Of a stretch of DNA of 58,698 nucleotides, positions 6,930 through 40,767 are shown piece after piece. Numbering within the stretch: position 1 is the first letter of the stretch; every line of letters starts with the position of its first letter. This DNA is from Patescibacteria group bacterium. GTDB lineage: Bacteria; Patescibacteriota; Doudnabacteria; UBA920. Under the pieces are notes generated by a model, which did not search any database, was not told the DNA's origin, and was given only the letters and a program-made list of their open reading frames with translations. The stretch is taken from assembly GCA_023484515.1 (NCBI GenBank), contig JAMDAY010000004.1, positions 1 through 58,698 on the forward strand, read 5' to 3'. Both the position numbers and the translations under genes were made by a program.

Positions 6930-6942
6930 ATAAGATATTTAA

Positions 6943-7976: not shown

Positions 7977-8195
7977 GTGAAGGCAGCCTTCCGGGATTTG
8001 CCTTCTAAAGTCAGATTGATGATGATCAATGTCCAATAATCTAAAGTCTGTTTGTCCCGGAAGGCTGCCTTCACTGCCATGGACCAATAAAATCAAAAAT
8101 AAAAATAACTGTCTCCTGAACACCACAACACGTGTTGTGGTGTTCCCCAATAGGCAGGCTTAAGGCTTATTGGAGGTTTTTTAAGGTTTTTTTCC
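7977..8195 (+). repeat. Structured dispersed element, copy A
   Basis: 20-bp perfect stem 7977-7996/8055-8074 around a 58-nt loop; perfect 28-bp palindrome 8118-8145; tail shared with copies C and D. Confidence 0.85.
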
Positions 8196-8197
8196 TA

Positions 8198-8445
8198 TGT
8201 CATTGCAAGTCCCGTGTCATTGCGTCCCCTTGGTGTCGTTGCGAGGCAAGGGCTTTGTCTTGCCGAAGCAATCTTTTCCTTGGGATAGATTGCTTCGCTC
8301 GGATGCACTCGCTCGCAATGACACCGCGCTTTATGTGCCATTGCGAGGCACGTCGCTCGCGAGCGACGTGCCTAAGAGTCAGGGCTTTATTTTTACCGAC
8401 GACTTGTCCCACGTAGCTTTAGCGAAGTCGGGAGCAGCCCAATGA
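8198..8445. repeat. Cluster of GTC-type REP-like palindromes
   Basis: Repeated gtcattgcgag...gaagcaatc...gattgcttc...ctcgcaatgac units. About 46 nt are near-identical, reverse-complemented, to 40558-40603. Confidence 0.85.
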
Positions 8446-8523
8446 ATGGGGCAACTACATCTTAAGACAAGCCTTCGCAATGAGCACAAAGGCTATCATA
8501 TGCATCCAGGTGAAGTAATATGG

Positions 8524-9363
8524 CTACTGTTTCCAGCCAAGAGCTTCCAGGGCGGCGGCGTCTGACGCCGGCACAGTAGCAGTAAAAGAATAGCTTTTCG
8601 GGCAGGCGTAGCAGGCATTGCAGGTCGCGTTGCCAGAGTCTGCGCGGCTGGCGGAATTTATTTGCAGGGAATGCGCCTGGCCGTAATAAGCCATTATTAG
8701 TTCTTCGTCCGTGGGTTCCTTAATAAACTTTATACCGCCTTCGCTGTACCATTTCTGCCAGGGTTCGTCCTCGCACTGCATAGGCTGGAAGGTTAGCTGC
8801 ACCGTCCCCTGCTGTGCCGGAGAGGTGGTCGCTGCCGGCGCCGGATTGGAAACGGCGGGGGGCGTGTCTGTTATTAAATTAAAGTTCGTAATTTTAACCT
8901 TGCCGTCCTGCAAACTGTAGTTAAACTGCGCGCGAAACTGGTTATGGCCGTCTTCGTAAGTTACTTCCGCCTTGGTGGAGGAAATAACTTTCAAATCCGC
9001 CACGTAAAACTTGCCGCCCAAAACTTCCTTTTCCGGAGACAACGCGGATAAATTGTCGCGCAGATAATTCTTTAAAGCGTCGTCTGTGGTGCAGGCTTCT
9101 TCCCAGGTCCGCAAGCATTTTTGCTTGGCTTCGCACCAGCTGTATCCGGCCGCTATTAAACACCCGCGCTCGTCCTTTTGGCCCCCAATTACTTGCTCAT
9201 CCGAATTTTGGTTGGCCTGATTATCCGGACTTTGGCCGGATTGATCGTCCACCAGTTTGTTTTGGTCAACTGCCTTGTGTGTAAAGAGATACGGCCTGGC
9301 AGCCACCATCCCTCCGGCCGCCACGGCTCCGGCCAAAATAATATAAAAATAAATTTTTTTCAT
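8524..9363 (-). CDS. Secreted Cys-containing surface protein
   Basis: N-terminal anchor, GGQKDERGCLIAAGYSWCEAKQKCLRTWEEAC module, C-terminal CxxC domain. Confidence 0.85.
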   Translation of the reverse strand: MKKIYFYIILAGAVAAGGMVAARPYLFTHKAVDQNKLVDDQSGQSPDNQANQNSDEQVIGGQKDERGCLIAAGYSWCEAKQKCLRTWEEACTTDDALKNYLRDNLSALSPEKEVLGGKFYVADLKVISSTKAEVTYEDGHNQFRAQFNYSLQDGKVKITNFNLITDTPPAVSNPAPAATTSPAQQGTVQLTFQPMQCEDEPWQKWYSEGGIKFIKEPTDEELIMAYYGQAHSLQINSASRADSGNATCNACYACPKSYSFTATVPASDAAALEALGWKQ

Positions 9364-9390
9364 AGGTTTTGTTTAATGTTTAATGTTCAA

Positions 9391-9488
9391 TTGAAGGGTC
9401 TCTTCTGGGATAAGCCTTCCTAAATAGCCTGATAATAATCACTGTATTAATAATCTAAAGCCTGTTAGTCCCAGAAGAGACCCTTCAA
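9391..9488 (+). repeat. Structured dispersed element, copy B (first stem-loop only)
   Basis: 20-bp perfect stem ttgaagggtctcttctggga / tcccagaagagacccttcaa; 58-nt loop alignable to copy A. Confidence 0.85.
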
Positions 9489-9512
9489 GGAAGCAAATAC
9501 CCCTTATATTAT

Positions 9513-9540
9513 ACTACGAAACTCCGGCTTAATAGTAACA
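9513..9540 (-). promoter_or_regulatory. Putative ECF-sigma promoter, copy 2
   Basis: Minus strand TGTTAC-N16-CGTAGT, upstream of the 9363 start. Confidence 0.6.
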
Positions 9541-9623
9541 AATAAAAAAACCTTCCAAATCCACAATAAGCTTGCGGGCTTAGAAGGAGGCGGGATGCAA
9601 ATAGGGCTGTCCCGCCAAAGGGG

Positions 9624-10271
9624 TTAAGGTTCCGGTTTTCCGGTTTTAAAAAGCAAAACGGAATAACGGACCTGAAGCTGGGCGTGATTCCCGGGCAGGC
9701 GCTGCAGCCAGAATTCCACGCTGCCAAATTTTCCTGCTTTGACCGTAGTCGTCAACAGCGGCTTGTTCTGCCAGTCTTTGCCGATGGATTGCGAGCCCGC
9801 ATAGCCCGCGCCGAGCTTAAAGTGCTTGAAGTCGTACTCCAGCTTGGCTCGCTCAATAGACTGGTGAAAACCGGCCGAGCTATTAAGCGGAATGTAGAAA
9901 AAATACACGGCATTGCCGCTAATGCGGGAGTTGACTTTATAGTCAACTTTGGTCCAGGGCAAAATGTAGCTGGCACCCTTGGCTGCCGGACCGCTGGCTT
10001 GGCCGAAATAGTCCTCGTGCGTCAGGCTGAATCTGTTTGCCTTGTACAGGACTCCGCCGCCGCCAATAAATGTCTCGCGGTAATTGTTTTTGCCAAAGTC
10101 AACGTATATCACGTCGGGGCCAATCAACCTGCCGCGCTGCTGGTAAAACTGGCTGTAGTGTTGGGTCGCGGCGTTTCGCATTGCCAGCCTGGCAACCAGC
10201 CAATTTTCTACCTCTTCAGCAGAAGCAACAGGCACTAATGCCATACAAAAGATAGCTATTCTTAACCACAT
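9624..10271 (-). CDS. Signal-peptide protein with a beta-barrel-like sequence pattern
   Basis: Signal peptide ending ASA|EE, then about 12 amphipathic aromatic-rich strand-like segments. Confidence 0.7.
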   Translation of the reverse strand: MWLRIAIFCMALVPVASAEEVENWLVARLAMRNAATQHYSQFYQQRGRLIGPDVIYVDFGKNNYRETFIGGGGVLYKANRFSLTHEDYFGQASGPAAKGASYILPWTKVDYKVNSRISGNAVYFFYIPLNSSAGFHQSIERAKLEYDFKHFKLGAGYAGSQSIGKDWQNKPLLTTTVKAGKFGSVEFWLQRLPGNHAQLQVRYSVLLFKTGKPEP

Positions 10272-10392
10272 AATTCCTCCAGAAAATTACCCCCAATTTT
10301 ATCACTTTTTGGCTTATTTGTCAAGAGTATCGTATTTACAATAATTATTTTATGGTAAAATACATGTATCTTTATTAGTTAACCTAACAAAA

Positions 10393-10896
10393 ATGAAACC
10401 AAAAGATATCGTAGCCTTGGTTATTGCCATAATAATCGCCGAGCTGGCAGGAGCGATTGGCGCGGTTTTTACCACTGCAGCCATTCCTTCGTGGTATGCC
10501 GGCCTGACCAAACCGGCCTTAACTCCCCCTTCATGGGTCTTTGCCCCGGTTTGGACCCTGCTCTACGCGCTAATGGGAGTGGCCTTATTTTTGGTCTGGA
10601 AAAAACATTCTTATAACCTTGGAATTATAGGAATGAAAAACGCGTGGGCATGGGCCCTGGCAGCATTCTTTTTCCAACTGGCCTTAAACGTGCTTTGGTC
10701 TTATCTTTTCTTTGGCCTGCACAGCCCGGGCGCGGCATTCGTGGAAATTGTAATTTTATGGCTGGCTATTATTGCCAACATTGTCGCGTTTGCCAAAATT
10801 TCCGTGCCCGCAGCCTGGCTTTTAATACCCTACGTGTTATGGGTAAGCTTTGCCGCGTACTTGAATTTTGCCATTTGGCGGCTGACAAGCGTTTAA
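10393..10896 (+). CDS. tspO: TspO/MBR tryptophan-rich sensory protein
   Basis: WYAGLTKPALTPPSWVFAPVWTLLY; LNVLWSYLFFG; LLIPYVLWVSFA. Confidence 0.95.
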   Translation: MKPKDIVALVIAIIIAELAGAIGAVFTTAAIPSWYAGLTKPALTPPSWVFAPVWTLLYALMGVALFLVWKKHSYNLGIIGMKNAWAWALAAFFFQLALNVLWSYLFFGLHSPGAAFVEIVILWLAIIANIVAFAKISVPAAWLLIPYVLWVSFAAYLNFAIWRLTSV

Positions 10897-10917
10897 AAAT
10901 GTAAAAATAAGGGAGCT

Positions 10918-11090
10918 GAAGGCAGCCTTCCGGGATAGGTCTTTTATAGCCAGATTGATGATAACCAACATCTGTTTGTCCCTTAAAGGCTGCCTTCCCT
11001 GCCATGGACCAGTAAAATAGGGAGTAAAAACAGATGCCTCCTGAACGCCACAACACGTGTTGTGGCGTTCCCGCCATATAGGCCAGGCGG
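10918..11090 (+). repeat. Structured dispersed element, copy C
   Basis: gaaggcagccttccggga...tccc..aaggctgccttc; perfect 28-bp palindrome 11043-11070. Confidence 0.85.
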
Positions 11091-11092
11091 AT

Positions 11093-11249
11093 CTGTAGTT
11101 GCCTGATTCATCAGGCCCCTTTGCAAAGCTGAGTGAACTAAGCGACTACAGCTTAAGGGGCAAGGCTTAAGGTTTAATTACAAATTATCCTTTGTAGGGG
11201 CTGCCCTTTGGGCGCCCGAACTGCGGGCAAGCTTTAGCTTGCCCCTACA
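11093..11249. repeat. Two GTAG...CTAC REP doublets (11093-11151 and 11193-11249)
   Basis: Each has tgtag/ctaca outer arms and two inner hairpins. 11193-11249 is near-identical to the reverse complement of 40344-40399. Confidence 0.8.
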
Positions 11250-11289
11250 TCTATTTAACCCATCACAATTGGAACAAGGATTTTCCCCT

Positions 11290-11317
11290 TGTTACCTTTC
11301 TTTTTATATTTCGTAAT
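11290..11317 (+). promoter_or_regulatory. Putative ECF-sigma promoter, copy 3 (autoregulatory)
   Basis: TGTTAC-N16-CGTAAT about 90 nt upstream of the ECF sigma gene. Confidence 0.65.
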
Positions 11318-11404
11318 ATTTAAGGAAAGGCAAAACAATTTTGGCCAAAATAACGCGGTATGTTATGCTATTAACAACAAAATTGATTAAAGTTAAACAA
11401 TAAA

Positions 11405-11968
11405 ATGAACATTTCGGAAACCGAGGCCATAAGCCTCTGCCAGCAGGGCCAATTGGAATATTTCGGCGCACTTTACGATTTATATATCCGCAAAATTTAC
11501 GATTTCACCTATTTTCGGACGCATCATAAAGAGACCGCCGAGGACCTGACCGCAACCATTTTTTCCAAAGCCCTGGAAAATTTTTCCCAATACCAGCCGC
11601 AAAAAGGGTCTTTCTCCTCCTGGCTTTACCGCATTGCCAAAAACGCCATTATAGACCACTACCGCACCAGCAAACCCAACGCTTCGCTGGAAGACGCCTG
11701 GGACGTCCCTGCAGCAGCCAACGTGGAAAGGGACGCGGACACGGCCATTAAGCTGGAAAAAGCCAGGCAACTTTTGTCCAAGCTGGCGCCGCAACAGCGG
11801 GACATTGTTACCATGCGGGTCTGGGACGGCTTGTCCTACCGCGAAATTTCGGAAATTTTAGGCTTAAGCGAAGCCAATGCCAAAATGATTTTTTCCCGGA
11901 CCCTGGCCAAACTAAACAAAGAGACGGCTTTTGCGGCCGTATCGCTGTTGTTGGCTTGGATCTCTTAA
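11405..11968 (+). CDS. ECF RNA polymerase sigma factor
   Basis: Region 2 (AEDLTATIF, FSSWLYRIAKN) and region 4 (GLSYREISEILG). Confidence 0.93.
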   Translation: MNISETEAISLCQQGQLEYFGALYDLYIRKIYDFTYFRTHHKETAEDLTATIFSKALENFSQYQPQKGSFSSWLYRIAKNAIIDHYRTSKPNASLEDAWDVPAAANVERDADTAIKLEKARQLLSKLAPQQRDIVTMRVWDGLSYREISEILGLSEANAKMIFSRTLAKLNKETAFAAVSLLLAWIS

Positions 11969-11996
11969 CGCAAACTTCATTTTTAAACTTACCAAT

Positions 11997-13484
11997 ATGG
12001 ACAACTTAGAAAAAAAAATCCAGCAGATCTTGCTTGATCTTTACAAAATTGATCCCAACTTTAAGCAGCACGAGGCAAAAATTGCCATAATTATCAAAGA
12101 AGTGCTGCTGGCCAAGCCTGATACCAAATTTGACGAAAAATTTGCCGAAGATTTAAGGCGCAGGCTTATGGCCAAGGCGGATTTGCTAAAGGAAAAGCAA
12201 AACAAAACTTTATTCGGCAGCCTTAAGTTTGCCAAACGCTTGAACTACGCATTGGGCGCAGTGGCAGTTCTTACTCTCATAATAGCCGGCGGCCTGCTTT
12301 CCCAAGACCGTAAAAACAAGCAAGCCATTTCCAACAAAACTTTGGAAATTTTTTCCGGGAAAACTTCCGTCACCAAGGCGCCAAGCCATGCCTTTGGCGA
12401 CCTGGCGCTGTCCTCCCCCCAAGGCAGCCAGCCAACTGGCATGGGCGGCGCAGGGGCCGGAATCGGGGCTGCGGATGCCAATTCCGCGCCAAAAACCGCT
12501 TTGGGACTGGGCGGTGGCGGCATGCCTATGCTGATTAACTACCAATACGTATATAAAGGCGGTGAATTTTCCCTGGACCAGCCGGAAATGGACGTTTACC
12601 GCCGCGTCAGGACCGCTGTCTCCGGCACAGGCGCCGCTTCCCTGCTAAAGCAAATGGATTTTGGAATAATTGACATGAACACTTTCAGCAACCTGTCACT
12701 GCAGAACCTGAATTTTGCGGAAGACAAAGACTACGGCTACATGTTTTATGTCAGCCTGGAAGAAGGGACCATTTCCATTAGCGAAAACTGGAAAAAATGG
12801 CCGTCCCCGGAAAATACCTGCAAAGATTCCGCCTGCTTTGAGCAAAACCGCGTAAAATTTTCCGACGTGCCGGAAGACGCCGCGCTCATTGCCATGGCTA
12901 ACCAGTTTTTAAAAGACCACAACATCTCCACGGCAAGCTACGGAGAGCCATTGGTAGAAAATTCGTGGAAGGAAGAATATTTAAAAGCAACGGACAAAAC
13001 GAATTCGTATATTCCAAATTTCCTTACGGTTATTTACCCGCAAATTATAAATGGGAATGAGGTTTACGACGAAGGAGGCAACCCGGCTGGCCTAACGGTA
13101 TCTGTAGACCTTTACGCCAAGAAAGCTTCGGGCGTAAGCGAACTCTACGCGCAAAATTACGAAAGCTCGGCTTACGAAGTGGAAACCGACGCAGGACAAT
13201 TGACCAAGTTGGCCGAACAAGGCGGCAGGAACGGGAATTTTTCCAACCCCGGCGCCGGACGCACCGTGCAGGTGGAACTGGGCACGCCGCACCTGGGATA
13301 CGTCAAGTCTTACCAGCCCCAGGAACAAGGCGGGCCGGCCGGCCAAATGCTAATCCCCGCCCTAATTTTCCCCATAACCAAGGTTTCCCAAGACACTCCT
13401 TTTTACCAAAAAAATGTCGTAGTCTTCCTGCCTAAAGATTTTCAGCAAACGGAAAACCCTGTCAGGATTATGCCGATGCAGTAA
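11997..13484 (+). CDS. Single-TM protein with large extracellular domain; anti-sigma candidate
   Basis: Directly after the ECF gene; cytoplasmic N-terminus, one TM, about 390 aa ectodomain. ATG at 11997. Confidence 0.75.
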   Translation: MDNLEKKIQQILLDLYKIDPNFKQHEAKIAIIIKEVLLAKPDTKFDEKFAEDLRRRLMAKADLLKEKQNKTLFGSLKFAKRLNYALGAVAVLTLIIAGGLLSQDRKNKQAISNKTLEIFSGKTSVTKAPSHAFGDLALSSPQGSQPTGMGGAGAGIGAADANSAPKTALGLGGGGMPMLINYQYVYKGGEFSLDQPEMDVYRRVRTAVSGTGAASLLKQMDFGIIDMNTFSNLSLQNLNFAEDKDYGYMFYVSLEEGTISISENWKKWPSPENTCKDSACFEQNRVKFSDVPEDAALIAMANQFLKDHNISTASYGEPLVENSWKEEYLKATDKTNSYIPNFLTVIYPQIINGNEVYDEGGNPAGLTVSVDLYAKKASGVSELYAQNYESSAYEVETDAGQLTKLAEQGGRNGNFSNPGAGRTVQVELGTPHLGYVKSYQPQEQGGPAGQMLIPALIFPITKVSQDTPFYQKNVVVFLPKDFQQTENPVRIMPMQ

Positions 13485-13510
13485 GTAACGAGAATTGAAT
13501 ATGCATAAAC

Positions 13511-13540
13511 AGCCGCGATTCTAGGGCCGCGGCTTTTATG
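13511..13540 (+). terminator. Intrinsic terminator
   Basis: agccgcg...cgcggct followed by a T-run. Confidence 0.6.
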
Positions 13541-13625
13541 ATGCCAAAAAAAAGACTTCTTTCACGCCGGGATTTTAAGCTAACTTAAAGTGCTTGCTCT
13601 AGCGCAAAGAGCAAGCACTTTTTCT

Positions 13626-13991
13626 TTAGTACCACGTATTCCAGCCATAGTAGGGATGGTAATTCCCATAGCCGAACATATTGCCGTAATACGGGTAGTA
13701 GCTTCCTAACCCGTAGCCGCCATAGCCGCCGTAATAATTTCCATAGCCGCCGTAGTAGGGATAATAGCCGCCGTACCCATACATATTGCCGTAATACGGG
13801 TAGTAGCCTCCTAAACCGTAGCCGCCATAGCCGCCGTAATAATTTCCATAGCCGCCGTTGTAGCCTTCGTTATAATTTACAGTCCGGTCATGGTTCCTGC
13901 CAGCCAAGGCGGGCTGGACCGCAAGAGCGCCTGCTGCCAAAACCAGCACGATTGCAGCGAGGCCAATGGCAAATTTCTTAATTCTTGTCAT
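13626..13991 (-). CDS. Secreted Gly/Tyr-rich protein with a 35-aa tandem duplication
   Basis: Signal peptide; 105-nt internal repeat; GGGGG-type RBS upstream. Confidence 0.8.
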   Translation of the reverse strand: MTRIKKFAIGLAAIVLVLAAGALAVQPALAGRNHDRTVNYNEGYNGGYGNYYGGYGGYGLGGYYPYYGNMYGYGGYYPYYGGYGNYYGGYGGYGLGSYYPYYGNMFGYGNYHPYYGWNTWY

Positions 13992-14085
13992 ACCCAAACA
14001 CCCCCTTTCAAAAATTTGAAACTATTATTTTACCCAATCTTGGCAAGATTAAAAGCCCCAACAAAGAGGCTTTTAAATTTACCGC

Positions 14086-14364
14086 CTAGTAGCCGCCGTA
14101 ACCGTAATAGGGATTGAACAATCCGGAAAGCACAATCCACTGGCTTACGGGATTGTAACCTCCTACGCCATAGCCATAGCCATATCCTCTCCCATAAAGG
14201 TAAGGATTAAAGAGCCCGTTTAAAACAATCCAACTGGAGATGGGGTTATAAGCCCCGTATCCGTAATACTGGGCCTTAGCTTGCTGCTTCGGCACCGCCA
14301 AAGAGGCAAGCCCTACCGCAGCGGCAATTGCCACAACCGCAATAATTTTGCTAGCCTTGGACAT
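14086..14364 (-). CDS. Secreted Gly/Tyr-rich protein with a duplicated YNPxSxWIVLxGLFNPY motif
   Basis: Signal peptide from MSKASK; internal repeat. Confidence 0.8.
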   Translation of the reverse strand: MSKASKIIAVVAIAAAVGLASLAVPKQQAKAQYYGYGAYNPISSWIVLNGLFNPYLYGRGYGYGYGVGGYNPVSQWIVLSGLFNPYYGYGGY

Positions 14365-14630
14365 AAAAATTACCCCCTTTCTTCGCTGAGCAAATTTTAT
14401 AACTCTCTCCAAAATTTTATAAATCTTTCCAAATAAGACGACGGATGTGCGCTTAGCTGCAACTAATTATATCGGGCGCGGTTAAAAGGTTAAACAAAAC
14501 TTTACAAAAATTTAGTTTGGCAATTATTTCAGCTTAAAAAAACAGTTTTCAAAACTTTTTCTGTTAAACACGAGAGGGTCTGTCTTTATAAGCATGTTAT
14601 ATTACAAAATATTAATTTCCTGTTTTCAAC

Positions 14631-14659
14631 TTGCATTACTTTTGTCAAAACGTTAAAAT
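14631..14659 (+). promoter_or_regulatory. sigma70-type promoter of the second ECF operon
   Basis: TTGCAT-N17-TAAAAT. Confidence 0.6.
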
Positions 14660-14688
14660 TGAAATAATTTCACTATTTTAAGGTATTA

Positions 14689-15288
14689 TTGTATATGGAG
14701 AGTTTAAACAAAAACCCAACCGACGAGGCGTTGGCCAAATTGGTCCAAAATGGCGAAATTGAAAAATTTGGCGAATTAGTGGAACGCTACGGTAAAAAAC
14801 TGGAACGCTACGGGCGAAAATTTCTCCAAAACAGCAACAGCCTGGAAGACCTCGTCCAGGACGTATTTTTAAAGGCATACAAAAATATCCAAAACTTTAA
14901 TCCTGACCGGAAGTTCTCCTCTTGGATTTACCGCATTGCCCACAATGAATTCATTAACGAGCTGAAAAAGAACAGCCGGCATCCTTTTGCTTTCATAGAA
15001 CCGGATTTATTGGCTCTGCACCCTGCCGTAGAAAACACTGTTTCGGATTTGGAAAAACAAGAAATGCGCCAACTGTTGGAATCTTCGCTGGAATCTTTGG
15101 ACCAAAAATACCGCGAAGTGTTAATTTTATATTATGAAGAAGAATTTTCCTATAAGGAAATTTCCGATATTTTAACCATTCCGGTTGCCACGGTAGGTAT
15201 CCGGCTGCAGCGCGGCAAATTGCGCCTGCAGGAAGCTTATAAGAGGATAGAAACATATGGATCAAACGGATCAAAAAAACGGCAATAA
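14689..15288 (+). CDS. ECF sigma factor (SigW-like)
   Basis: EDLVQDVFLKAY, FSSWIYRIAHN, FSYKEISDIL. Confidence 0.93.
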   Translation: MYMESLNKNPTDEALAKLVQNGEIEKFGELVERYGKKLERYGRKFLQNSNSLEDLVQDVFLKAYKNIQNFNPDRKFSSWIYRIAHNEFINELKKNSRHPFAFIEPDLLALHPAVENTVSDLEKQEMRQLLESSLESLDQKYREVLILYYEEEFSYKEISDILTIPVATVGIRLQRGKLRLQEAYKRIETYGSNGSKKRQ

Positions 15289-16009: not shown

Positions 16010-16034
16010 AACAATTTTCTGTCTGTAATAATCT

Positions 16035-16490: not shown

Positions 16491-16501
16491 AGGCCACGCT
16501 T

Positions 16502-21547: not shown

Positions 21548-21630
21548 AAGCCGCAACAAGCAAGCCTTTTTACGGCGGCATAACAAAATCCCTGTAAAGG
21601 ATTGTGTTTTGCCGCTTTATTTATTGCCTT

Positions 21631-21718
21631 AACAGGGTCATCTTTTCGGGATAAACGGACTTAAATTATTAGTCCATAAAATTTTTAGATAAGCAGTCCC
21701 AAAAGGATGACCCTTGTT
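21631..21718 (+). repeat. Structured dispersed element, divergent copy E (stem-loop only)
   Basis: gggtcatcttttcggga / tcccaaaaggatgaccc pair at 16 of 17 positions including G-U; same GGGAT...GTCCC inner closure as copies A-C. Confidence 0.65.
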
Positions 21719-21786
21719 GCAATATTCCCTTCTTGCTACATATCTATAAAACCTGTAAAATTAACTTGAATTTATCATTTCATTTT

Positions 21787-25196: not shown

Positions 25197-25253
25197 TTTC
25201 TAGAGGCAACTACAACTGCATTTGACGGGCTTTGATATTGCCTCCCACTTAAA

Positions 25254-25285
25254 AATTGCCTTGCTTACAGCAAGGCAATTATTTT
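25254..25285 (+). terminator. Intrinsic terminator
   Basis: aattgccttgc-ttaca-gcaaggcaatt followed by a T-rich tract. Confidence 0.7.
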
Positions 25286-25349
25286 ATGGGTGATTATAAG
25301 ATTCCTCCCCCATTCCTTGATGAGCATGCTTAACGAGCCTCTTTGAAAA

Positions 25350-25460
25350 TATTTTTTCGCGGTAATTTTTCAACAAACATAATCTTGTAAATTTTGCATT
25401 ATGATGATTGTTTACGGTAATTTTTAAACGTCAGAATTGCAAAATTACCGCGAAAAAATA
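25350..25460. repeat. 111-bp element with 20-bp perfect terminal inverted repeats
   Basis: tattttttcgcggtaatttt / aaaattaccgcgaaaaaata, with an internal partial copy. Confidence 0.75.
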
Positions 25461-25894
25461 AAATAAACGAGCTTGCCTTAGGTTTCCCTAAGCGCAAGCC
25501 CGTCTAAGAGGGGTATGCTTTTCCCATTTGCGAACTTCCTTTATATATGTTTACTTATATAACTGGCTAAGCGCCATGTATGCTTTTCGCTGGTACCTTG
25601 GAAAAGCTACCCGGCCGCGCTTCGCGCGGCTCCCGTTACTTGTTTTTGCATCCGCAGACTTTCTCCTTTCTACCTTTATCCTAACCCCTTTGACGCTGCA
25701 GTCAAGCTGGGATTTCTTCTCCCAAATAAGCTAAATTTTTAAGCCGGTGGATAACCGTTTATATTCCCATACTTGATTACAAAATACCCAAAGCAGTTAG
25801 TCAAAATATGGGGAATTTAGGGGATTACAGGCGCCGCATTCTGTATTTTGCCAAAACGGCCAACCGTTGCCCAGGCATATTTTATTTTGGCATT

Positions 25895-25918
25895 TTAAAG
25901 CCCCCTTTTAGGGGGCTT
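25895..25918 (-). terminator. rpoD terminator
   Basis: aagcccc-ctaaaaa-ggggctt on the minus strand after the rpoD stop. Confidence 0.6.
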
Positions 25919-25923
25919 GATTG

Positions 25924-34449: not shown

Positions 34450-34638
34450 AAGTTTGTTTCTAAAGGTTAGTTTTCCTTAAATTTATTATAGCGAAAACCC
34501 GCAAGAAATACAAAAATTAATAATTTTTATAGCTAGTAATAAAACCATAAACAAAAGGCGGATATTATCCGCCCCTACATCCGTGTGTTCGTGATTGTTT
34601 GTATTTGCGTTCGTGTAAGTTGGCTTTTAATCAACATC

Positions 34639-36042
34639 CTATGCCGTTTTAATTTCCACCAAATTCAAATTCTCCTTCAGCCCCAGCGGTTCGCCGGTCA
34701 CAATGACCAATTTTTCGCCTTTTTTTATCATTTTGTGCGATTTGGCCGTTTCTATCATCAAAGATAAAAGTTTTTCGTAAGTCTTAACCATTGGCACCAA
34801 AAAGCTCTGTACGCCCCACAGCAAACACATTTGCCTATGGACTTTCTCGCGCGGCGTGAGCATGACAATGTGCGACATAATGGGCCGCTCATGCGCCACT
34901 TCCCTGGCCGTAAAGCCGCTGTCCGTGGCGCCAATAATCAGGCGAGCATGCGTGTTGGTCGCCAGGTCGTTAATGCTTTCCGCAATGGCCTCGGACCGGG
35001 AAACCGCTTTTTCCAGCAAATGCTTATGCCCGGGCAAAAACGCGCTTTTTTCCGTGACTTCAATAATCCGGCACATCTGTTGCACGGCTTTTACGGGATA
35101 ACGGCCGAAAGCGGTTTCGCCGGAAAGCATTACGCAGTCCGTCTGGTCAATGACCGCATTGGCCACGTCGCTGACTTCGGCGCGGGTCGGCCTGGGGTTG
35201 CGGATCATGCTGTCCAGCATCTGCGTGGCCACAATTACCGGCTTGGCGGCCTTTAAGCATTTTTGGATGATGGTTTTTTGGATAATCGGCACCTGTGCTT
35301 CCGGCATTTCCACGCCCAAATCCCCCCTGGCCACCATAATGGCGTCGGACTGCTTAAGGATTTCATCAAAGTTTTTTACGGCTTCCGGCTTTTCTATTTT
35401 GGAAATTATTTTCGGCTTTTCCATGCCCTTGGGCGTGTATTTATCTATCAATACTTTAAGATTTTTTACGTCCCTGGCCGTGCGCACGAACGACAGGGCA
35501 ATGTAATCCACGTCCTGCTTTAAGCCGAACTTTAAGTCTTTAATGTCCCTGTCGGTCAAAATGGGAATTTTCAGGCGGGTGCGCGGCAGGTTCACGCCTT
35601 TTTTGTCCTGGATCCTGCCGGGGGAAAGCACCGCGCAGTAAACTTTTTTCCCCGAAACTTTTTGCACTTCCATCTCTATCAGCCCGTCTTCTATTAAGAT
35701 GCGCTGCTTTTCCCTGATGCTGCGCACCACTTCGGCGTCCAAATTGAAGTCCTCGCCAATTATCACTGTCTGGCCGACTTTTACGTCCAAAGGTTTTTTC
35801 AAGTCTTTTACTCTTATTTTCGGCCCGTGCAGGTCCTGGATAATGGCTATGGGAACTTTCAGGCTTTCCGAAACCGCCCTGACGTTTTTAATCAGTTTTT
35901 CGTGGCTCTCATAATCCCCGTGGCTGAAATTCAAACGAGCCACGTTCATGCCGGCCTTGGCCATTTCCGTTAAAATTTTAGATGACCGCGAAGCAGGCCC
36001 CAGCGTGCAGACAATCTTGGTTTTTTTAAAGTTGTTTTTCAT
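34639..36042 (-). CDS. pyk: Pyruvate kinase
   Basis: TKIVCTLGP, RLNFSHG, MVARGDLGVE, ATQMLDSM, MLSGETA. Confidence 0.97.
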   Translation of the reverse strand: MKNNFKKTKIVCTLGPASRSSKILTEMAKAGMNVARLNFSHGDYESHEKLIKNVRAVSESLKVPIAIIQDLHGPKIRVKDLKKPLDVKVGQTVIIGEDFNLDAEVVRSIREKQRILIEDGLIEMEVQKVSGKKVYCAVLSPGRIQDKKGVNLPRTRLKIPILTDRDIKDLKFGLKQDVDYIALSFVRTARDVKNLKVLIDKYTPKGMEKPKIISKIEKPEAVKNFDEILKQSDAIMVARGDLGVEMPEAQVPIIQKTIIQKCLKAAKPVIVATQMLDSMIRNPRPTRAEVSDVANAVIDQTDCVMLSGETAFGRYPVKAVQQMCRIIEVTEKSAFLPGHKHLLEKAVSRSEAIAESINDLATNTHARLIIGATDSGFTAREVAHERPIMSHIVMLTPREKVHRQMCLLWGVQSFLVPMVKTYEKLLSLMIETAKSHKMIKKGEKLVIVTGEPLGLKENLNLVEIKTA

Positions 36043-36046
36043 AAAG

Positions 36047-36325
36047 CTAATTCTTACTGACATACACGAACCCCTCGTTCCAGGCATGCTGCAATACCAC
36101 CCCCAAACCAAAGCCGCTAAGCAAAAAATTGGCTTCCATATTGTAAAATCGCAAACATGCCAGCCAGGCTGCGGGCCCGAACAAGCTGTGGTGAAAATGA
36201 TAGCGCCTAATTTTGGAAAATCTTTTCAAAGAAAACCAACGGCAGGTTATTAGTTCCCACAGCGCCGCGAATGTAAACCCTCCTGCAGTTCCTGGTAAAA
36301 ATCTCGCCAGTAAAGCATGACCCAT
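36047..36325 (-). CDS. Small membrane protein
   Basis: Three hydrophobic segments and an HFHH motif; co-oriented and adjacent to pyk. Confidence 0.6.
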   Translation of the reverse strand: MGHALLARFLPGTAGGFTFAALWELITCRWFSLKRFSKIRRYHFHHSLFGPAAWLACLRFYNMEANFLLSGFGLGVVLQHAWNEGFVYVSKN

Positions 36326-36465
36326 ATTGCTTGTATCTTAGCAAATTTTACCGGCAAGGACAACTCCGTTCTTAATTTTCTATTTTTCCGCCTCTTGATT
36401 ATTACATAAAAGCCGATCCATGCCTGTCCGGCAGACAGGCTCTTCTGGCGGAAAATCCTTAAATT

Positions 36466-37779
36466 TTAGTTGGATACCACAAACACCCTTTTGTCCTTCC
36501 TGGCCATTAAGGGCAGGGACAGCCACCCCGCTTTAATGAGCGCGATGTCGGTAGAGTTGGCGCTTTCCAATTGTTCCTTTTTTCCGCCATTGGATAAAAA
36601 AATGGGCCAGGTAGAAACGGGGATAAAACCTTTGGCGTCCGTAAAATACACGGTCTTGCCGTAAAGAATCCAGCTTCCGGCCTGGTGGGGCATGGCCAGC
36701 GAAGACAAGCCGGCCGGCAGTTTGTCCCCTAAGGAAACGTTTATGCTTAAGGATTGCGGCGTTTGGCTGGCCACCGCAATCACGTCGCCGGTCAGAGGGT
36801 CGGTAAAGCCGCTTCCGACAGGCACGACGGGATTTACTTTGTCCCCCGATGCCAAGGGATTAACCAAGTAAGATTTAAAAGACTTGTCAGGAGCCAAATG
36901 CACCAAAGCTCCTTGGAAAAGGTTATTGCTGACGCTTGCAAGGTTCCTGTCAAAACCCAACGGCTGGCGGTATTCCAAATAATAATACTGGTTGTAAGCC
37001 CGCCTGATTTTTAAAACCTTGGGGCCGCTGCCGGGAACTTCCAAGGGCTCAAGATTATAAACCCCGCTTTGCGTTACAGTCGCAATATTTGACGTGTCCA
37101 GCCAGCCCATGGCTTCCATTTGGACGCCGTTAAAATAAACCATATTTGCGTTTGCATTGCCCATTACGCCGTAACCGTCTCCGTATTCCTCCACTGTGCA
37201 GCTATTTTCTATGTCCAAGCTGTTTTGGCAATTATAAAAACTGGCATGCAATAAACCCAAAAGATGCCCTATTTCGTGGGCCAGAGTCACCAAATAATTG
37301 GAGTTTAAGGAATCTATGCCAATAAGATCATTGCCCAGCAAGGCATAGCCGATCCAGCCGCAACGGGCGGAATTGAACGGAGCGATGACTATGGTTTTTA
37401 TTTCGCTGTTTTCCGAGTAGGAATAATCCGAGGAAGCGGCTTTTTTGGCCGCCGCAGCTACTGTGGGCAGATCGCAAGTTTGGCTAAGCGGCAGCGTGAA
37501 CGGCCCGAAGACCTTGCCGGATAAATTTACGTTATTAAACGAAGTTTCCTGGTAAAAGGTATTTACGGAATTCGGGCTTGCAAACAACTGGTTATAAATT
37601 GTTTCCTTAGTCCAAGGCAAATATCTGGCGCCGGAAAAATTCGCCATAATTACGTTTATATACAACGTCTTCGGTGAATCCGCACTGACCGAAGCCGGCG
37701 GAAAAATAAAATAAAAAAACAGTCCCCAAACCACCATGGCCGCCGCGAGAACTGTGAGCACTTTTTTTAAAACTCTCAT
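36466..37779 (-). CDS. Secreted metzincin metallopeptidase (M11/M6-like)
   Basis: HEIGHLLGLLH zinc motif, EYGD..VMG Met-turn, YYYLEYRQ; C-terminal surface module. Confidence 0.88.
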   Translation of the reverse strand: MRVLKKVLTVLAAAMVVWGLFFYFIFPPASVSADSPKTLYINVIMANFSGARYLPWTKETIYNQLFASPNSVNTFYQETSFNNVNLSGKVFGPFTLPLSQTCDLPTVAAAAKKAASSDYSYSENSEIKTIVIAPFNSARCGWIGYALLGNDLIGIDSLNSNYLVTLAHEIGHLLGLLHASFYNCQNSLDIENSCTVEEYGDGYGVMGNANANMVYFNGVQMEAMGWLDTSNIATVTQSGVYNLEPLEVPGSGPKVLKIRRAYNQYYYLEYRQPLGFDRNLASVSNNLFQGALVHLAPDKSFKSYLVNPLASGDKVNPVVPVGSGFTDPLTGDVIAVASQTPQSLSINVSLGDKLPAGLSSLAMPHQAGSWILYGKTVYFTDAKGFIPVSTWPIFLSNGGKKEQLESANSTDIALIKAGWLSLPLMARKDKRVFVVSN

Positions 37780-37879
37780 AGGGAAGTTGCCTTCCCCCAA
37801 TTTTCCCCCGCTTAATCCTTAGTGAGCTATTAACCTGACGCAAGGATGTTTTTTTCCTTAGGATCCATGCCGGAAAAAA

Positions 37880-39235
37880 TTAAAACAATCCCATCTGTTT
37901 CGGTTTTTTAAAAATCCGGCTTTGTTCCTCTTGGTTGTAAATATGGATTTTCCCGAACACCCCGTCGTAACCGCCTTCCGCGCGGACCAACCCCTGCCGC
38001 ACGCGGATTACGGCTTGGGCAATCTCCGGCGTGGAGATTCGGGTAATTTGATCTTCATTGAAATCCAGCAGTATTACGAATTCATTGGGAATTGGAAATT
38101 GGGAATTGGGAATTTTTGACGACACCATCTCCTCATACATTTTTACCACCTTCTTGCTTGCCGGGCCGACGCCTAAAGTTTCGGCAATAATTTCTTCCAG
38201 AGGGATTATGCTCTTAAACGGCACGGATCGCGGCGGCACAAACCCATATTCGCGGTCTGCCAGCTGGTCCACGCGGTTTAGCACGCCAACCAGCAATTTT
38301 TTTCCGCACACCGGACATATTCCCCCCAATTTCGCGGTTTGCGCAGGCAGGCAGGAAAATTTGCAGTCGCGGTGCCCGTCCAAATGATACTTGCCTTCTT
38401 CCGGATAAAATTCAATGGTATACAAAAACTCTTTGGGGTCCTTATTCTTTATAATGCGGATTATTTCCTGGTAAGACAACTTGCCGGGATCAATTTCAAA
38501 CGCGTTGGCTTCGCGCCCCAGCTTCCTTAACGAATGGGCGTCGGAATTGGAAATGAGTGAATATTTGTCCAGGCCGGAAACCTGCCAGTTCATTTTTGGG
38601 TCGCTGGACAAGCCGGTTTCCAAGGCAAAGATATATTTTGCTTGCCCGCCAAACGCTTCTTCCACGGAATCAAATCCGGATAACGACCCGAACACCCCAA
38701 AATGCGGCGTCCAGGCATGGGCGGGAATGACCGCAATACTCGGATCAGCCTCCAGCGCGATTTTTACTATTTCATCGCAATGGATGCCGGTAATGGGCCG
38801 GCCGTCGGCTTTTAAGTTCGCGCCGCGTTTTTCCAAGCCCGCATTGAACCGGTCAACTGCTTCAAAGTTCGGAGCAAGGACCAGCAAATGAATGCGCCTG
38901 ACTTTGTCGCCTTGCTTGTATATGGAGGAAACTTCCACGGTAAGCATAAACAAGGCCTGCGGCTTACCTGTAGAGGAGGGTTTCACTCCTCCTTTCCCGC
39001 CGGACGGGTCTAGGCCCGTCCCGACGCCGGCCGATCGTAACTGATATAATCCCGGTCTTACTTCTTCCAGCGTTGATTTTAATTCCGCAAGCCACTTGGG
39101 ATGGGTAAAATCCCCGGTGCCGATTATATTTATCCCTTTCTTGTCCGCCCAAACCCCGATATTTTGCGGGTTTAAGTCTTGGGAGCAAGCCCTGCTGTAT
39201 TTGGAATGGATGTGCAAATCTGCAATAATGCGCAT
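37880..39235 (-). CDS. PHP-domain protein (endonuclease Q / UvrD-associated family) with two repeat-derived insertions
   Basis: ADLHIHSKYSRA, GTGDFTHP, PAHAWTP, ETGLSSDP, SNSDAHS, CPVCG. Confidence 0.9.
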   Translation of the reverse strand: MRIIADLHIHSKYSRACSQDLNPQNIGVWADKKGINIIGTGDFTHPKWLAELKSTLEEVRPGLYQLRSAGVGTGLDPSGGKGGVKPSSTGKPQALFMLTVEVSSIYKQGDKVRRIHLLVLAPNFEAVDRFNAGLEKRGANLKADGRPITGIHCDEIVKIALEADPSIAVIPAHAWTPHFGVFGSLSGFDSVEEAFGGQAKYIFALETGLSSDPKMNWQVSGLDKYSLISNSDAHSLRKLGREANAFEIDPGKLSYQEIIRIIKNKDPKEFLYTIEFYPEEGKYHLDGHRDCKFSCLPAQTAKLGGICPVCGKKLLVGVLNRVDQLADREYGFVPPRSVPFKSIIPLEEIIAETLGVGPASKKVVKMYEEMVSSKIPNSQFPIPNEFVILLDFNEDQITRISTPEIAQAVIRVRQGLVRAEGGYDGVFGKIHIYNQEEQSRIFKKPKQMGLF

Positions 39236-39361
39236 AAATAAAATTGAAAGATTGAAAATTAAATAATTGAAAATTTCAAGGAATCCTTAATCTTTCAACA
39301 ATTCAATTTTCAATTTTTAATTATTAAATTACTACTATTATACCATCTTTTGCTGTATAAT

Positions 39362-40150
39362 ATGAATATGAATACCAATGACCAATATTTAAAAACTGCT
39401 TTGCAGGCGGCTAAACAGGCAGGCGAAATATTTAAAGCCAGTTTCGGCAGGCCGCGGCAGGTAAAAAACAAAAACAACAATCCGCGGGACCTGGTTACGG
39501 AAGCGGACTTGAAAATAGAAAAACTTATCCGAAGCATTGTTGGCAGGCGTTTTCCCGCCCATAAAATTATCGGCGAAGAATTTGGCGCGGCTGAAATTAA
39601 CAAAAGCGACCTGGTGTGGATTGTGGATCCCATAGACGGCACGACTAACTTTATCCAAGGCATCCCTTTTTGCTGCATCTCCATAGCCCTGTGGGACAGC
39701 AAGGGACCTTTGGCGGGAGTAGTTTACAACCCGATCACTAATACTTTATACCACGCAGCCAAAGGCAAGGGCGCTTATTGCAACAACAAACTAATCCATG
39801 TTTCAAAAACCAATTCCGTAAAAGACAGTTATAGCGCTGTCAGTTGGGGCCGAACCTGGCAGATGGGAAGAAAAATTATGCCGTTTTTTATCAGGAACAT
39901 GAGAAAAGTGAGAACTTTCGGCAGCGTCGCTTTGGAAACCTGCTATGTCGCCCAGGGAAGTTTTGACAGTTTTATTCAGGGCAGGCTGTCTATTTGGGAT
40001 GTTGCGGCAGCGGCTTTAATACTGGCCGAAGCCGGCGGCCGGGCAACGGACTGGCAAGGCAAGGCCGTGTCCCGGCAGGTGAAAAATTTGGTAGCCAGCA
40101 ACGGCAGGCTGCATAAAGAATTGCTAAAGCTGGTGAACAATCTCTATTGA
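39362..40150 (+). CDS. suhB: Inositol monophosphatase family protein
   Basis: DLVTEAD, GEE, VDPIDGTTNF, WDVAAA. Confidence 0.93.
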   Translation: MNMNTNDQYLKTALQAAKQAGEIFKASFGRPRQVKNKNNNPRDLVTEADLKIEKLIRSIVGRRFPAHKIIGEEFGAAEINKSDLVWIVDPIDGTTNFIQGIPFCCISIALWDSKGPLAGVVYNPITNTLYHAAKGKGAYCNNKLIHVSKTNSVKDSYSAVSWGRTWQMGRKIMPFFIRNMRKVRTFGSVALETCYVAQGSFDSFIQGRLSIWDVAAAALILAEAGGRATDWQGKAVSRQVKNLVASNGRLHKELLKLVNNLY

Positions 40151-40227
40151 AGCCCGTATATTATCTTGAATAATTTTTGTTATTAGTAAGCCGAAATTTG
40201 TTCAACTGATTTTGCGGAGATGGGTAA
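40144..40227 (+). mobile_element. 84-bp palindromic MITE, copy 1
   Basis: About 5 substitutions versus 45692-45775 over the first 78 nt; right end degenerate. Confidence 0.75.
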
Positions 40228-40232
40228 GGACA

Positions 40233-40601
40233 GTAGGGACAGGTCTAGACCTGTTGTCCTTGCAAGAAAAGGCGCAAAACCTCCTTAAGCTTGCAGTTGC
40301 CCAATTCATTGGGCTGCGCATTCGGCAACAGACCCATAAAGAATGTAGGGGCAAGCTTTAGCTGCCCGCAGTTCGGGCGCCCAAAGGGCAGCCCCTACAA
40401 AGGATAATTTATCTTGCCACAGTGCCGCCTGGTACCTGGCTTGCAATGGGCATGCAAAATGCGGTGTCATTGCGAGCGAGTGCATCCGAGGCTGACGAAG
40501 CAAACTATCCCGCGTGTCATCGCGAGTGCATCCGAAGCGATCTGTTCCAGGCAAAGGAAAAGATTGCTTCGGCAAGACAAAGCCCTTGCCTCGCAATGAC
40601 A
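40233..40601. repeat. Island of GTAG- and GTC-type REP-like palindromes
   Basis: gtagggacaggtctagacctgt (40233-40254); doublet 40344-40399; gtcattgcgag-type units 40465-40601. Confidence 0.85.
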
Positions 40602-40611
40602 CCGGGCATGG

Positions 40612-40767
40612 GAAAAAGGTTTTAGAAAACCCCTGATAAACCTTATACCTGCCCCTATGGGAACGCCTCAACCGCGGTTGAGGCGTTCAGGAGGCAGATG
40701 TTTTTACTCCCTATTTTACTTGTCAATGGCAAGGAAGGCACCTTTTAGGGGATAAACAGGCTTTAGA
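40612..40767 (-). repeat. Structured dispersed element, copy D (5'-truncated)
   Basis: Reverse complement aligns to copies A and C; perfect 28-bp palindrome 40661-40688. Confidence 0.8.

Follow-up and report, generated by a model that had tools for sequence, protein, structure and literature searches.

The BIMEs of Enterobacteria and the mosaic repeats of Neisseria are intergenic blocks made of several palindromic modules. REPINs are doublets of REPs, which form hairpins and are mobilized by RAYT transposases (Bertels & Rainey 2011, PMC3116915; Di Nocera et al. 2013, PMC3733652). Stems of 5-13 bp have been reported for REP units; in REP dimers, the spacer measures 20-100 bp, and the two units may form separate hairpins or a single large stem-loop (PMC3733652).

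We analyzed a 58.7-kb stretch of DNA (the window) from the genome of a Patescibacteria (CPR) bacterium. Two repeated modules are present in it: M1 is a hairpin, and M2 consists of a linker and a 28-bp palindrome. There are five copies of M1 and three copies of M2, all of them intergenic. M1 stands alone in B and E, and occurs together with M2 in A, C and D (D has only half of M1). An earlier reading of this DNA, made from the sequence only, had described five copies of a structured RNA. All five copies exist; however, their best likeness is to small palindromic DNA repeats. We propose, with a probability of about 0.55, that M1 and M2 form a new REPIN- or MITE-like family of non-coding, palindromic, interspersed and non-autonomous elements. 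The type of element is ordinary. The host is unusual: it is a CPR bacterium, and the REP and REPIN surveys consulted (PMC3116915, PMC3733652) name no CPR host.

M1 resembles a REPIN or REP dimer in that short palindromic units are inverted around a spacer within the 20-100-bp range, with a total length of ~100 nt. It can adopt either a single long hairpin or a pair of small ones, and the changes between its arms are compensated. Each arm is a short stem-loop, as in REPs, but the 4-5 bp of its stem are at the low end of the 5-13-bp range. Both modules are extragenic, are clustered with other repeats and have left decayed singlet remnants. Unlike REPINs, M1 and M2 possess no GTAG/CGTC tag (M2 is flanked by CTCCT and CCC, and it is other repeats of the window that carry GTAG), the spacer of M1 is conserved without being self-complementary, and no RAYT gene was found in the 58.7-kb window. 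M1 also resembles MITEs such as Correia/NEMIS, ERIC and RUP (PMC10969869), because it is ~100 nt long, non-coding and intergenic, has 20-bp TIRs and could form a hairpin in a transcript. In contrast to MITEs, there is no target-site duplication: no direct repeat is shared by the two flanks of A (aaggagg / tgccatg), of B (gttcaa / ggaagc) or of E. Furthermore, no IS is known that shares these ends and could be the parent element.

Copies of the M1 hairpin

The M1 unit is an inverted doublet of a ~20-nt sequence, (G)AAGG-N3-5-CCTT(C)-N-GGGA, with a 45-58-nt spacer. Each arm contains a mini-stem of 4-5 bp, and the arm flanks are GT/TT/CT and CGGGA/TGGGA. In M1-A (7977..8074, plus strand), the arms at 7977-7996 and 8055-8074 form a perfect 20-bp stem around a 58-nt loop. 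A mini-palindrome, GAAGGcagCCTTC, lies inside each arm, and the loop has two direct TCTAAAGTC motifs on either side of a small palindrome, TTGATgatgATCAA. M1-B is a solo hairpin (9391..9488, plus strand) with arms at 9391-9410 and 9469-9488, which again form 20 perfect bp around a 58-nt loop; its arm mini-palindrome is GAAGggtctCTTC. It is located 28 nt upstream of the ATG (9363) of a minus-strand gene for a 279-aa protein. Thus, the perfect stems that the sequence-only reading had described in A and B were confirmed, their arms being 100% complementary. The complete element is small (98 nt), with perfect 20-bp TIRs and no conserved ORF.

The remaining copies are less regular. M1-C (10918..10999, plus strand) has an intact 5′ arm, whereas in its 3′ arm (10979-10999) ~4 positions are mispaired and 1 nt is inserted; from its loop, 16 nt are missing. 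M1-E is a diverged solo hairpin (21630..21719) with arms at 21634-21651 and 21697-21714, which are 89% paired over 18 nt, and a 45-nt loop. Its arm mini-palindrome is AAGGgtcatCCTT, and it lies 14 nt upstream of the first start codon of a CN-hydrolase ORF. E had been listed with no minus label; judged from the sequence comparison, it is probably on the minus strand. The covariance-model score is 33.2 bits on this strand versus 27.5 bits on the plus strand, and its loop is identical to that of A at 36/45 nt versus 30/45 nt, respectively (the comparison of E with B is ambiguous). In D, only the 3′ half of M1 (40767-40733) is present, and the homology begins at TCTAAAG (40767). As D has neither a 5′ arm nor GGGA, the GGGA...TCCC closure is not common to every copy, contrary to what had been claimed. 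Accordingly, two copies are perfect (A and B), one is slightly imperfect (E), one is decayed with an internal deletion (C) and one is truncated (D).

The observation that ORFs do not keep frame across the copies was reproduced: all six frames have stops or frame differences. A peptide gene was considered and rejected. In C, AGGGAG-N9-ATG precedes an ORF of 15 codons, but a start codon is missing at this site from both A and D.

The M2 palindrome and the evidence from pairing

In A, the M2 module and its tail occupy 8075..8198 on the plus strand: the linker (8075-8117) is followed by the palindrome GAACACCACAACACGTGTTGTGGTGTTC (8118-8145) and by a T-rich tail, M3, which extends to an ATG at 8197. 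M2-C (11000..11090, plus strand) contains the linker and the perfect 28-bp palindrome GAACGCCACAACACGTGTTGTGGCGTTC (11043-11070). D (40606..40767, minus strand) consists of the half M1, the M2 linker, the palindrome GAACGCCTCAACCGCGGTTGAGGCGTTC (40661-40688) and the M3 tail. The linker is common to A, C and D. The tail had also been ascribed to all three but is shared only by A and D, because the homology between C and A stops ~15 nt beyond the palindrome. The tails of A and D end in T-runs after small hairpins, and the tail hairpin of A contains one G·U pair on the sense strand. Perfect 28-bp palindromes after CTCCT and before CCC occur exactly three times in the window, and ~0.06 are expected by chance. 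An unrelated second perfect 28-bp palindrome, which also has a CGCG centre, is located at 8346-8373, and a perfect 34-bp palindrome at 40845-40878.

Pairing is maintained in both modules. Between the arms of A and B, 6/20 pairs differ; all six are altered on both sides, so that 40/40 cells are Watson-Crick, and this earlier observation therefore stands. Four of the six differences are in the arm mini-loop or its innermost pair. Most of the changes are transversion pair swaps, for which no G·U intermediate is possible. The three M2 palindromes show four compensated pair changes (4/14 positions), and the two central pairs of M2, which are unpairable within a hairpin, were changed symmetrically (ACGT to CGCG). 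When M1-A, M1-B and the three M2 palindromes are taken together, 82/82 pairs are Watson-Crick and none is G·U. The description "fully compensated" applies to these five structures; it does not apply to the 3′ arm of C, which is mispaired, or to E (89%). The loops of A and B are identical at 45/58 nt and are not self-complementary. Region A folds far better than its shuffles on both strands (z = -7.3), and the minus strand is as good as the plus strand.

These data can be considered in terms of RNA. M1, perhaps together with M2 and the tail, could be a lineage-specific structured RNA (a 3′-UTR stabilizer or terminator, a cis-regulatory leader or a small RNA), whose stems are held by selection for RNA pairing. 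The compensated stems, the very stable folds and the fairly conserved M1 loop are in line with this idea, as are the positions of B and E 28 nt and 14 nt upstream of start codons, the T-runs behind small hairpins at the ends of the A and D tails and the one sense-strand G·U pair. In A, C and D, the composite comes behind the 3′ end of a gene on its own strand, a placement which fits a 3′-UTR role as well. Moreover, REPs are often transcribed and may serve as RNA elements (PMC3733652). However, no Rfam family was found even at E = 10, no terminator was found at M1 or M2 by scanning, and the elements are missing from relatives (see below). The equal folding of the minus strand, the pair swaps that exclude G·U intermediates and the symmetry of the four central M2 bases, which would be a loop in RNA, also speak against an RNA, as do the decay of C, the truncation of D and the antisense orientation of B and E relative to their neighbors, in contrast to the sense orientation of A, C and D. 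Because G·U pairs are absent (0/82), the centre of M2 has dyad symmetry, the arms contain mini-palindromes, and the copies occur in both orientations and in part as decayed forms, the pairing is better explained at the level of DNA than of RNA. The structured-RNA option is thus weakened, mainly by the missing G·U pairs, the symmetry at unpairable positions and the mixed orientation, but it is not refuted; we regard it as unlikely.

Perfect dyad symmetry through the centre is a property of duplex DNA. Therefore, the M2 palindromes, and the other perfect ones, might be protein-binding sites for a dimeric regulator or an 11-6-11 tyrosine recombinase, carried within duplicated intergenic DNA. The conserved CTCCT...CCC flanks are consistent with such sites, as are the recurrence of the 28-bp length and the CGCG centre in the unrelated palindrome at 8346-8373 and the existence of the 34-bp palindrome. 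A sequence-specific site should, however, stay constant, whereas M2 changed symmetrically at 4/14 positions among three copies; in addition, the window encodes no recombinase, and the neighboring genes are functionally unrelated. We consider binding sites improbable. There is also a small chance that M1 and/or M2 is not selfish DNA but a lineage-specific functional nucleic-acid structure (an RNA module or an orphan guide scaffold), or that the modules mark an undescribed process which keeps 28-bp palindromes symmetric through the centre.

Mosaic blocks and searches for related sequences

M1 and M2 are embedded in intergenic mosaics, together with three or more further families of palindromic repeats. 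Directly abutting A, at 8199..8460 (plus strand), are nested palindromes of the GTCATTGCGAG...GAAGCAATCT type and the palindrome at 8346-8373. This segment is homologous, with indels, to 40292-40603; thus, A and D remain homologous beyond 8195/40612, where the copies had been said to end, and through the other families as far as ~8460/40292. The continuation of the D cluster (40292..40605, minus strand) contains GTCATTGCGAG-type and GTAG-headed repeats that are common to the A and C clusters. Downstream of C, a GTAG-headed palindromic repeat, TGTAGGGGC...GCCCCTACA, is located at 11182..11250 (plus strand), and its part 11182-11229 is 100% identical to 40363-40410 beside D. A further companion in the blocks is an 83-nt palindromic family. 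These blocks resemble the BIMEs of Enterobacteria and the mosaic regions of Neisseria (PMC3733652) in that varied palindromic modules are present in variable combinations, often downstream of genes; in sequence, they are unrelated to those systems.

The GTCATTGCGAG-type repeats have 11 matches in comparison with 0.5 expected. This repeat lies twice in frame within a threonine-dehydrogenase-like gene, and GTAG-headed repeats are found inside three ORFs. In this respect, both families are similar to the RPEs (Rickettsia palindromic elements; PMC10969869, PMC3733652), which lie in frame within protein-coding genes. M1 and M2 differ from RPEs, since they are seen solely between genes and are unrelated in sequence. 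Such placement inside genes is what mobile palindromes are expected to show (PMC3733652, PMC10969869). Exact 12-mer inverted pairs within ~150 nt number 87 in the window versus 7 in ~50 kb from four relatives, in line with an expansion specific to this lineage. Independent assemblies of the strain break exactly at repeat borders (8147, 8295/8306 and 11052/11065).

The arrangement of the copies bears on two further explanations. A, B and C are grouped within 3 kb, at spacings of 1414 and 1527 nt with one or two genes in between; D and E are inverted and lie at distances of 10-30 kb. The neighboring genes are functionally unrelated, those between the copies are of mixed orientation, and the copies themselves are found in both orientations relative to their neighbors. 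The copies could be remnants of local segmental duplication and gene conversion, their palindromes having been perfected by template switching, with neither transposition nor function. The proximity of A, B and C agrees with this explanation, as does the patchy similarity (85% in M1 and M2 versus 98-100% in adjoining modules), and template-switch correction of quasi-palindromes is established (PMC7202029). Nevertheless, the intervening genes are unrelated, D and E are distant and inverted, modules that occur solo (B and E) or joined (A, C and D) behave as independent units, and related repeat families are placed at precise in-frame positions in genes. We give duplication without transposition little weight. 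The spacing of A, B and C, with one or two genes between hairpins of approximately attC size, is also reminiscent of an integron-type gene-cassette array. This reading is effectively refuted: the ends are GTGAAGG...CCTTCAC with no RYYYAAC/GTTRRRY cores, the stems are perfect with no extrahelical bases, the intervening genes are in mixed orientation, and neither IntI nor another tyrosine recombinase is encoded in the window. A TIGR array was likewise rejected, as far as the published description permits a comparison, because the copies are not tandem and no Nop-type (Tas-like) domain was matched.

We searched for related sequences in databases. At the gathering score, only the rRNA and tRNA of the window reached Rfam families; with E up to 10, all copies gave just low-scoring hairpin models of eukaryotic miRNA and snoRNA. 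This result agrees with the earlier reading, in which the element was not recognized as a known RNA family. In species-representative genomes, an exact scan for TGNCTCCTGAAC-N20-GTTCCC gave 33 matches, none of them palindromic and all attributable to chance. In JGI metagenomes, the M2 pattern had no match, and the M1 loop pattern had three GC-rich, stemless chance matches. In IMG/VR viral contigs, the M1 pattern had no match, and a 15-base M2 pattern had at least 120 chance matches, the best of which was 12/20 palindromic. Six-frame pseudo-proteins of the five copies, compared with 5.8 billion proteins to detect spurious ORFs over related repeats, had no match at E ≤ 1. A protein search with a 121-aa ORF over the D cluster, and blastn of 7960-8470 against plasmids and phages, returned nothing. 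Terminator and promoter scans around A-C gave counts at the level of shuffled sequence, with no terminator at M1 or M2. One weak promoter-like match, in the loop of B and facing the 279-aa gene, is the only element-associated one.

The nearest available relatives are four genomes with 55-61% protein identity, from which ~50 kb was sampled. A covariance model built from A and B recovered only A, B, C and E in the window, its remaining matches being generic hairpins, and found nothing in the ~50 kb. Behind the Memo gene, the spacer measures 655 nt in the window versus 26, 149 and 204 nt in three relatives; in the fourth, the contig ends 205 nt past the Memo gene, before the next gene is reached. 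At this one comparable site, the spacers of the relatives are short and repeat-free. No trace of M1 or M2 was found there or in the ~50 kb, although downstream synteny is not kept. In the comparison with relatives that the sequence-only reading had recommended, the elements were thus missing from the sampled DNA of all four, at a distance of 55-61% identity and with downstream synteny lost. Look-ups with the flanking proteins led solely to contigs of the identical strain, which match the window at 100%.

Mobile DNA as the preferred explanation

From the features described above, we infer the mobility of M1 and M2, the type of enzyme that would act on them and the cause of the compensation. The non-autonomous mobile element named among the original options fits best: the units occur in several copies between genes, partly in a decayed or truncated state, in both orientations and in mosaic clusters, and no trace of them was found in the ~50 kb sampled from the four relatives. 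Two of the specific options named there are not supported. An IS200/IS605-PATE form does not agree with inverted arms, which make one hairpin instead of same-strand subterminal hairpins, and no tnpA/tnpB, Y1_Tnp or OrfB is present in the window. For an orphan guide-RNA scaffold, there is no TnpB, IscB or Cas gene in the window and no Rfam match to omega-RNA or HEARO. The suggested check for copies flanking TnpA, TnpB, IscB or a recombinase was likewise negative within the window.

We propose the following scheme. When single-stranded, the doublet would fold into one long hairpin or two small arm hairpins. An enzyme encoded elsewhere would act in trans to excise and reinsert it; the most plausible candidates are an HUH/Y1 transposase (RAYT/IS200 type) and other transposases with recognition of the 20-bp ends. 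Only copies with intact pairing would remain mobile. Alternatively or additionally, template switching at quasi-palindromes may copy one arm onto the other; quasipalindrome mutations arise in this way (PMC7202029), which provides a neutral route to arm homogenization. Either process would yield perfectly compensated Watson-Crick changes without RNA function. In this manner, M1, M2 and at least three other palindromic families may have built up the mosaic, BIME-like intergenic blocks.

It should be mentioned that several observations count against mobility. In no ORF of the 58.7-kb window was a transposase or recombinase domain found, including a RAYT/Y1 HUH domain; A, B and E have no target-site duplication beside them; neither M1 nor M2 has a GTAG or CGTC tag; and the M1 spacer, conserved and not self-complementary, is unlike many REPIN spacers. 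Furthermore, the five known copies all come from one 58.7-kb window, and the genomes for comparison are either of the identical strain or of relatives with 55-61% protein identity.

These results include a caution for RNA discovery, since hairpin-dependent mobile DNA and template-switch repair also yield perfectly compensated paralogous stems. Three checks discriminate: whether G·U pairs are missing, whether unpairable central bases are symmetric and whether the orientation is mixed. If M1 and M2 are mobile, a streamlined CPR genome would possess several active-looking families of palindromic repeats, some of them in frame inside enzymes, and a cognate transposase would be predicted. Mobility of these elements would then bear on how reduced genomes gain spacer DNA and protein insertions.

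Modular anatomy of the copies

The five loci of the sequence-only reading are present at their noted positions: A (7977-8195), B (9391-9488), C (10918-11090), E (21631-21718) and D (40612-40767, minus strand). The copies are combined modules rather than a single element. The hairpin module M1 (inverted arms and a loop) is solo in B and E, and in A, C and D it is joined to M2, which is composed of a 43-nt linker and then a 28-bp palindrome. The arms of M1-A (7977-7996/8055-8074) and M1-B (9391-9410/9469-9488) are 20 nt long, 100% complementary and separated by 58 nt. As had been claimed, six stem pairs differ between A and B, and all are changed on both sides, none on one side alone. When the 3′ partner was slid by 1-3 columns in the A/B alignment, in which 20/20 pairs of both copies are Watson-Crick, M1 pairing fell to 42-58%.

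The claim of fully compensated stems holds for A, B and the three M2 palindromes, but not for the other M1 copies. M1-C has an intact 5′ arm, a 3′ arm with mispairs and a 1-nt insertion, and a loop short by 16 nt; the M1-E arms are 89% paired over 18 nt. In D, homology begins only at TCTAAAG within the loop; the 5′ arm and the GGGA, noted earlier for all copies, are absent. The T-rich tail, previously assigned to A, C and D, is common to A and D only, since C departs about 15 nt past the palindrome. The A-D homology, with indels, runs about 300 nt further (to 8460 and 40292), and a 48-nt stretch absent from A is 100% identical between C and D. This extra sequence beyond M2 consists of other repeat families. 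E had been taken as a plus-strand copy; however, its minus strand fits the A/B covariance model better (33.2 versus 27.5 bits) and shares more of the A loop (36/45 versus 30/45 nt), whereas comparison with the B loop gives a tie.

Each M1 arm contains a mini-palindrome (A, GAAGGcagCCTTC; B, GAAGggtctCTTC; E, AAGGgtcatCCTT), and four of the six A/B differences are located in its mini-loop or innermost pair. In the M1 loop, a small palindrome, TGAT-N4-ATCA, is flanked on both sides by TCTAAAG(Y)C in direct repeat. On the minus strand of the B loop, 9432-9459 resembles a promoter (TTTAGA-16-TATTAT, 9/12 match) directed at a 279-aa gene (ATG 9363); promoter-like counts around this region are at the shuffle level.

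The M2 motif CTCCTGAAC-N20-GTTCCC matches three times in the window (0.06 expected), and GAAC-N20-GTTC is a perfect 28-bp palindrome in all three copies. Among these, 4/14 pairs are altered on both sides and none is broken; the two innermost pairs are altered symmetrically (ACGT to CGCG). Two perfect palindromes of unrelated sequence were also observed: 8346-8373 (28 bp, AGGCACGTCGCT-CGCG-AGCGACGTGCCT), with the length and CGCG centre of the M2 copy of D, and 40845-40878 (34 bp, GTGAAAAAATTGTACAA|TTGTACAATTTTTTCAC), between a 145-aa ORF and D.

Pairing as a property of DNA or of RNA

The compensated changes are real; compensation alone, however, does not show selection on RNA. One alternative, a lineage-specific structured RNA or 3′-UTR module, is improbable in our judgement. 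Every copy of M1 and M2 lies between genes, and A, C and D come after the 3′ end of a gene on their own strand (Memo-like, TspO and the 145-aa ORF, respectively). Region A folds at -89.6 kcal/mol (-56.9 ± 4.5 in shuffles); its minus strand, at -82.4 kcal/mol, is close to this value. B lies between two minus-strand genes, with one start codon 28 nt downstream, and E precedes a CN-hydrolase ORF by 14 nt, apparently in antisense orientation to it. The Rfam search yielded no family for any copy, even at E = 10, in line with the initial reading, in which no known RNA family was recognised.

Four observations favour a property of duplex or single-stranded DNA. Structured RNAs usually contain several per cent G·U pairs; in M1-A, M1-B and the three M2 copies, 82/82 pairs are Watson-Crick and none is G·U. 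Among the six M1 changes, four are transversion swaps (C-G to G-C, A-T to T-A, G-C to T-A), for which no route via a G·U intermediate exists. In a hairpin of either RNA or DNA, the central four bases of M2 would be unpaired loop, and thus intramolecular pairing cannot explain their symmetry. Copies occur in both orientations relative to transcription, and perfect copies coexist with decayed and truncated ones. Palindromes bound by a protein as duplex would be one DNA-level explanation, but we consider it rather unlikely. Passive duplication with homogenisation by template switching seems equally unlikely. Template switching itself offers, at quasi-palindromes, a neutral route by which one arm is copied onto the other (PMC7202029).

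Companion repeats and distribution

Other palindromic families are present in the window, the first two of them in the extra sequence beyond M2. The core of nested palindromes with ends GGTGTCATTGCGAG...CTCGCAATGAC occurs 11 times at ≤1 mismatch (0.5 expected). This repeat type (GTCATTGCGAG) is found in frame twice within a threonine-dehydrogenase-like gene (48162-49547, minus strand, 461 aa), whose ORF stays open, as with Rickettsia palindromic elements (RPEs). Compared with PDB 2d8a, the protein is longer by two stretches, residues 56-118 and 279-327, whose positions match those of the repeats at ~49200-49345 and ~48589-48695. GTAG-headed REP-like palindromes (TGTAGGGG...CCCCTACA; TGTAGGGGAGGGTYTARACCCTCCCCTACA) lie at 47529-47565, 55918-55954 and 38969-38991 in ORFs for an aminotransferase, a 209-aa methyltransferase-like protein and a 451-aa hypothetical protein, and encode GSKPSPT, GGFRPSPT and GGVKPSST peptides. 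A third family, an 83-nt imperfect palindrome with 92-96% identity, is found at gene borders within a nucleotidyl-transferase gene cluster (40139-40221, plus; 42878-42960, minus; 45687-45775, plus). Insertion into genes, as in the first two families, is also how RPEs and intragenic REPs behave (PMC10969869, PMC3733652). The companions show that this genome receives insertions of small palindromic repeats, and for M1 and M2 this is indirect evidence; the GTAG tag of the second family hints at a RAYT-type (Y1 HUH) transposase somewhere in the genome.

Further repeats were observed: a 105-nt tandem duplication (13644-13853, 88% identity) within a Gly/Tyr-rich 123-aa ORF (13626-13997, minus); a terminator-like perfect 19-bp stem directly 3′ of the 5S rRNA gene (56291-56353); a 112-nt imperfect palindrome (79%) in the 23S-5S spacer (56504-56615); and several inverted repeats, including 35-nt arms (25339-25373/25437-25471), in an AT-rich region of 730 nt that has no genes and precedes rpoD-dnaG (25200-25920).

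Searches for the exact motifs in 185,579 species-representative genomes, JGI metagenomes and IMG/VR turned up nothing beyond chance matches, which lacked palindromes or stems. A six-frame pseudo-protein of all copies had no match among 5.8 billion proteins, nor did blastn against plasmids and phages. The sole further assemblies of this DNA were Logan contigs from SRR10267473 and SRR10252151, which are independently assembled from the same strain and 100% identical over 6901-8147 and 8295-11065. They end at repeat borders, inside repeats (8147, 8295/8306, 11052/11065); thus, the repeats break short-read assemblies.

This Patescibacteria (CPR) genome encodes a Memo-like protein whose named homologues all come from the same group; the top match is just 63% identical. 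The DUF3160-Memo pair is kept in four relatives (55-61% Memo identity). The post-Memo spacer is 655 nt in the window versus 26, 149 and 204 nt in three relatives; in the fourth, the contig stops 205 nt after Memo. Neither M1 (by the A/B model) nor companion motifs were found in about 50 kb of these relatives, where exact 12-mer inverted pairs number 7, versus 87 in the window.

Nature of the repeats

We propose, with a probability of a little over one half, that M1 and M2 are new non-autonomous palindromic interspersed repeat families of REPIN/MITE type that lie in BIME-like mosaic clusters. In a REPIN, two REPs flank a spacer as an inverted doublet, and the whole folds into a hairpin as single-stranded DNA or in mRNA; compensatory changes are common and singlets are remnants (PMC3116915). 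REP dimers have 20-100-bp spacers and often lie downstream of genes, in mosaic regions and sometimes within genes (PMC3733652). The published description of REPINs agrees point for point with the copies here. Membership of REPINs proper is, however, not established: M1 and M2 lack the GTAG tag, and a RAYT is assessable within the window only. Unlike classical MITEs, copies A, B and E show no target-site duplication in their flanks. Transposase, integrase, TnpB/IscB, Cas and reverse-transcriptase domains were absent from the window ORFs tested, and that the hairpins are attC sites is very improbable. The main value of these repeats is the caution that they bring to the interpretation of covariation among paralogous hairpins.
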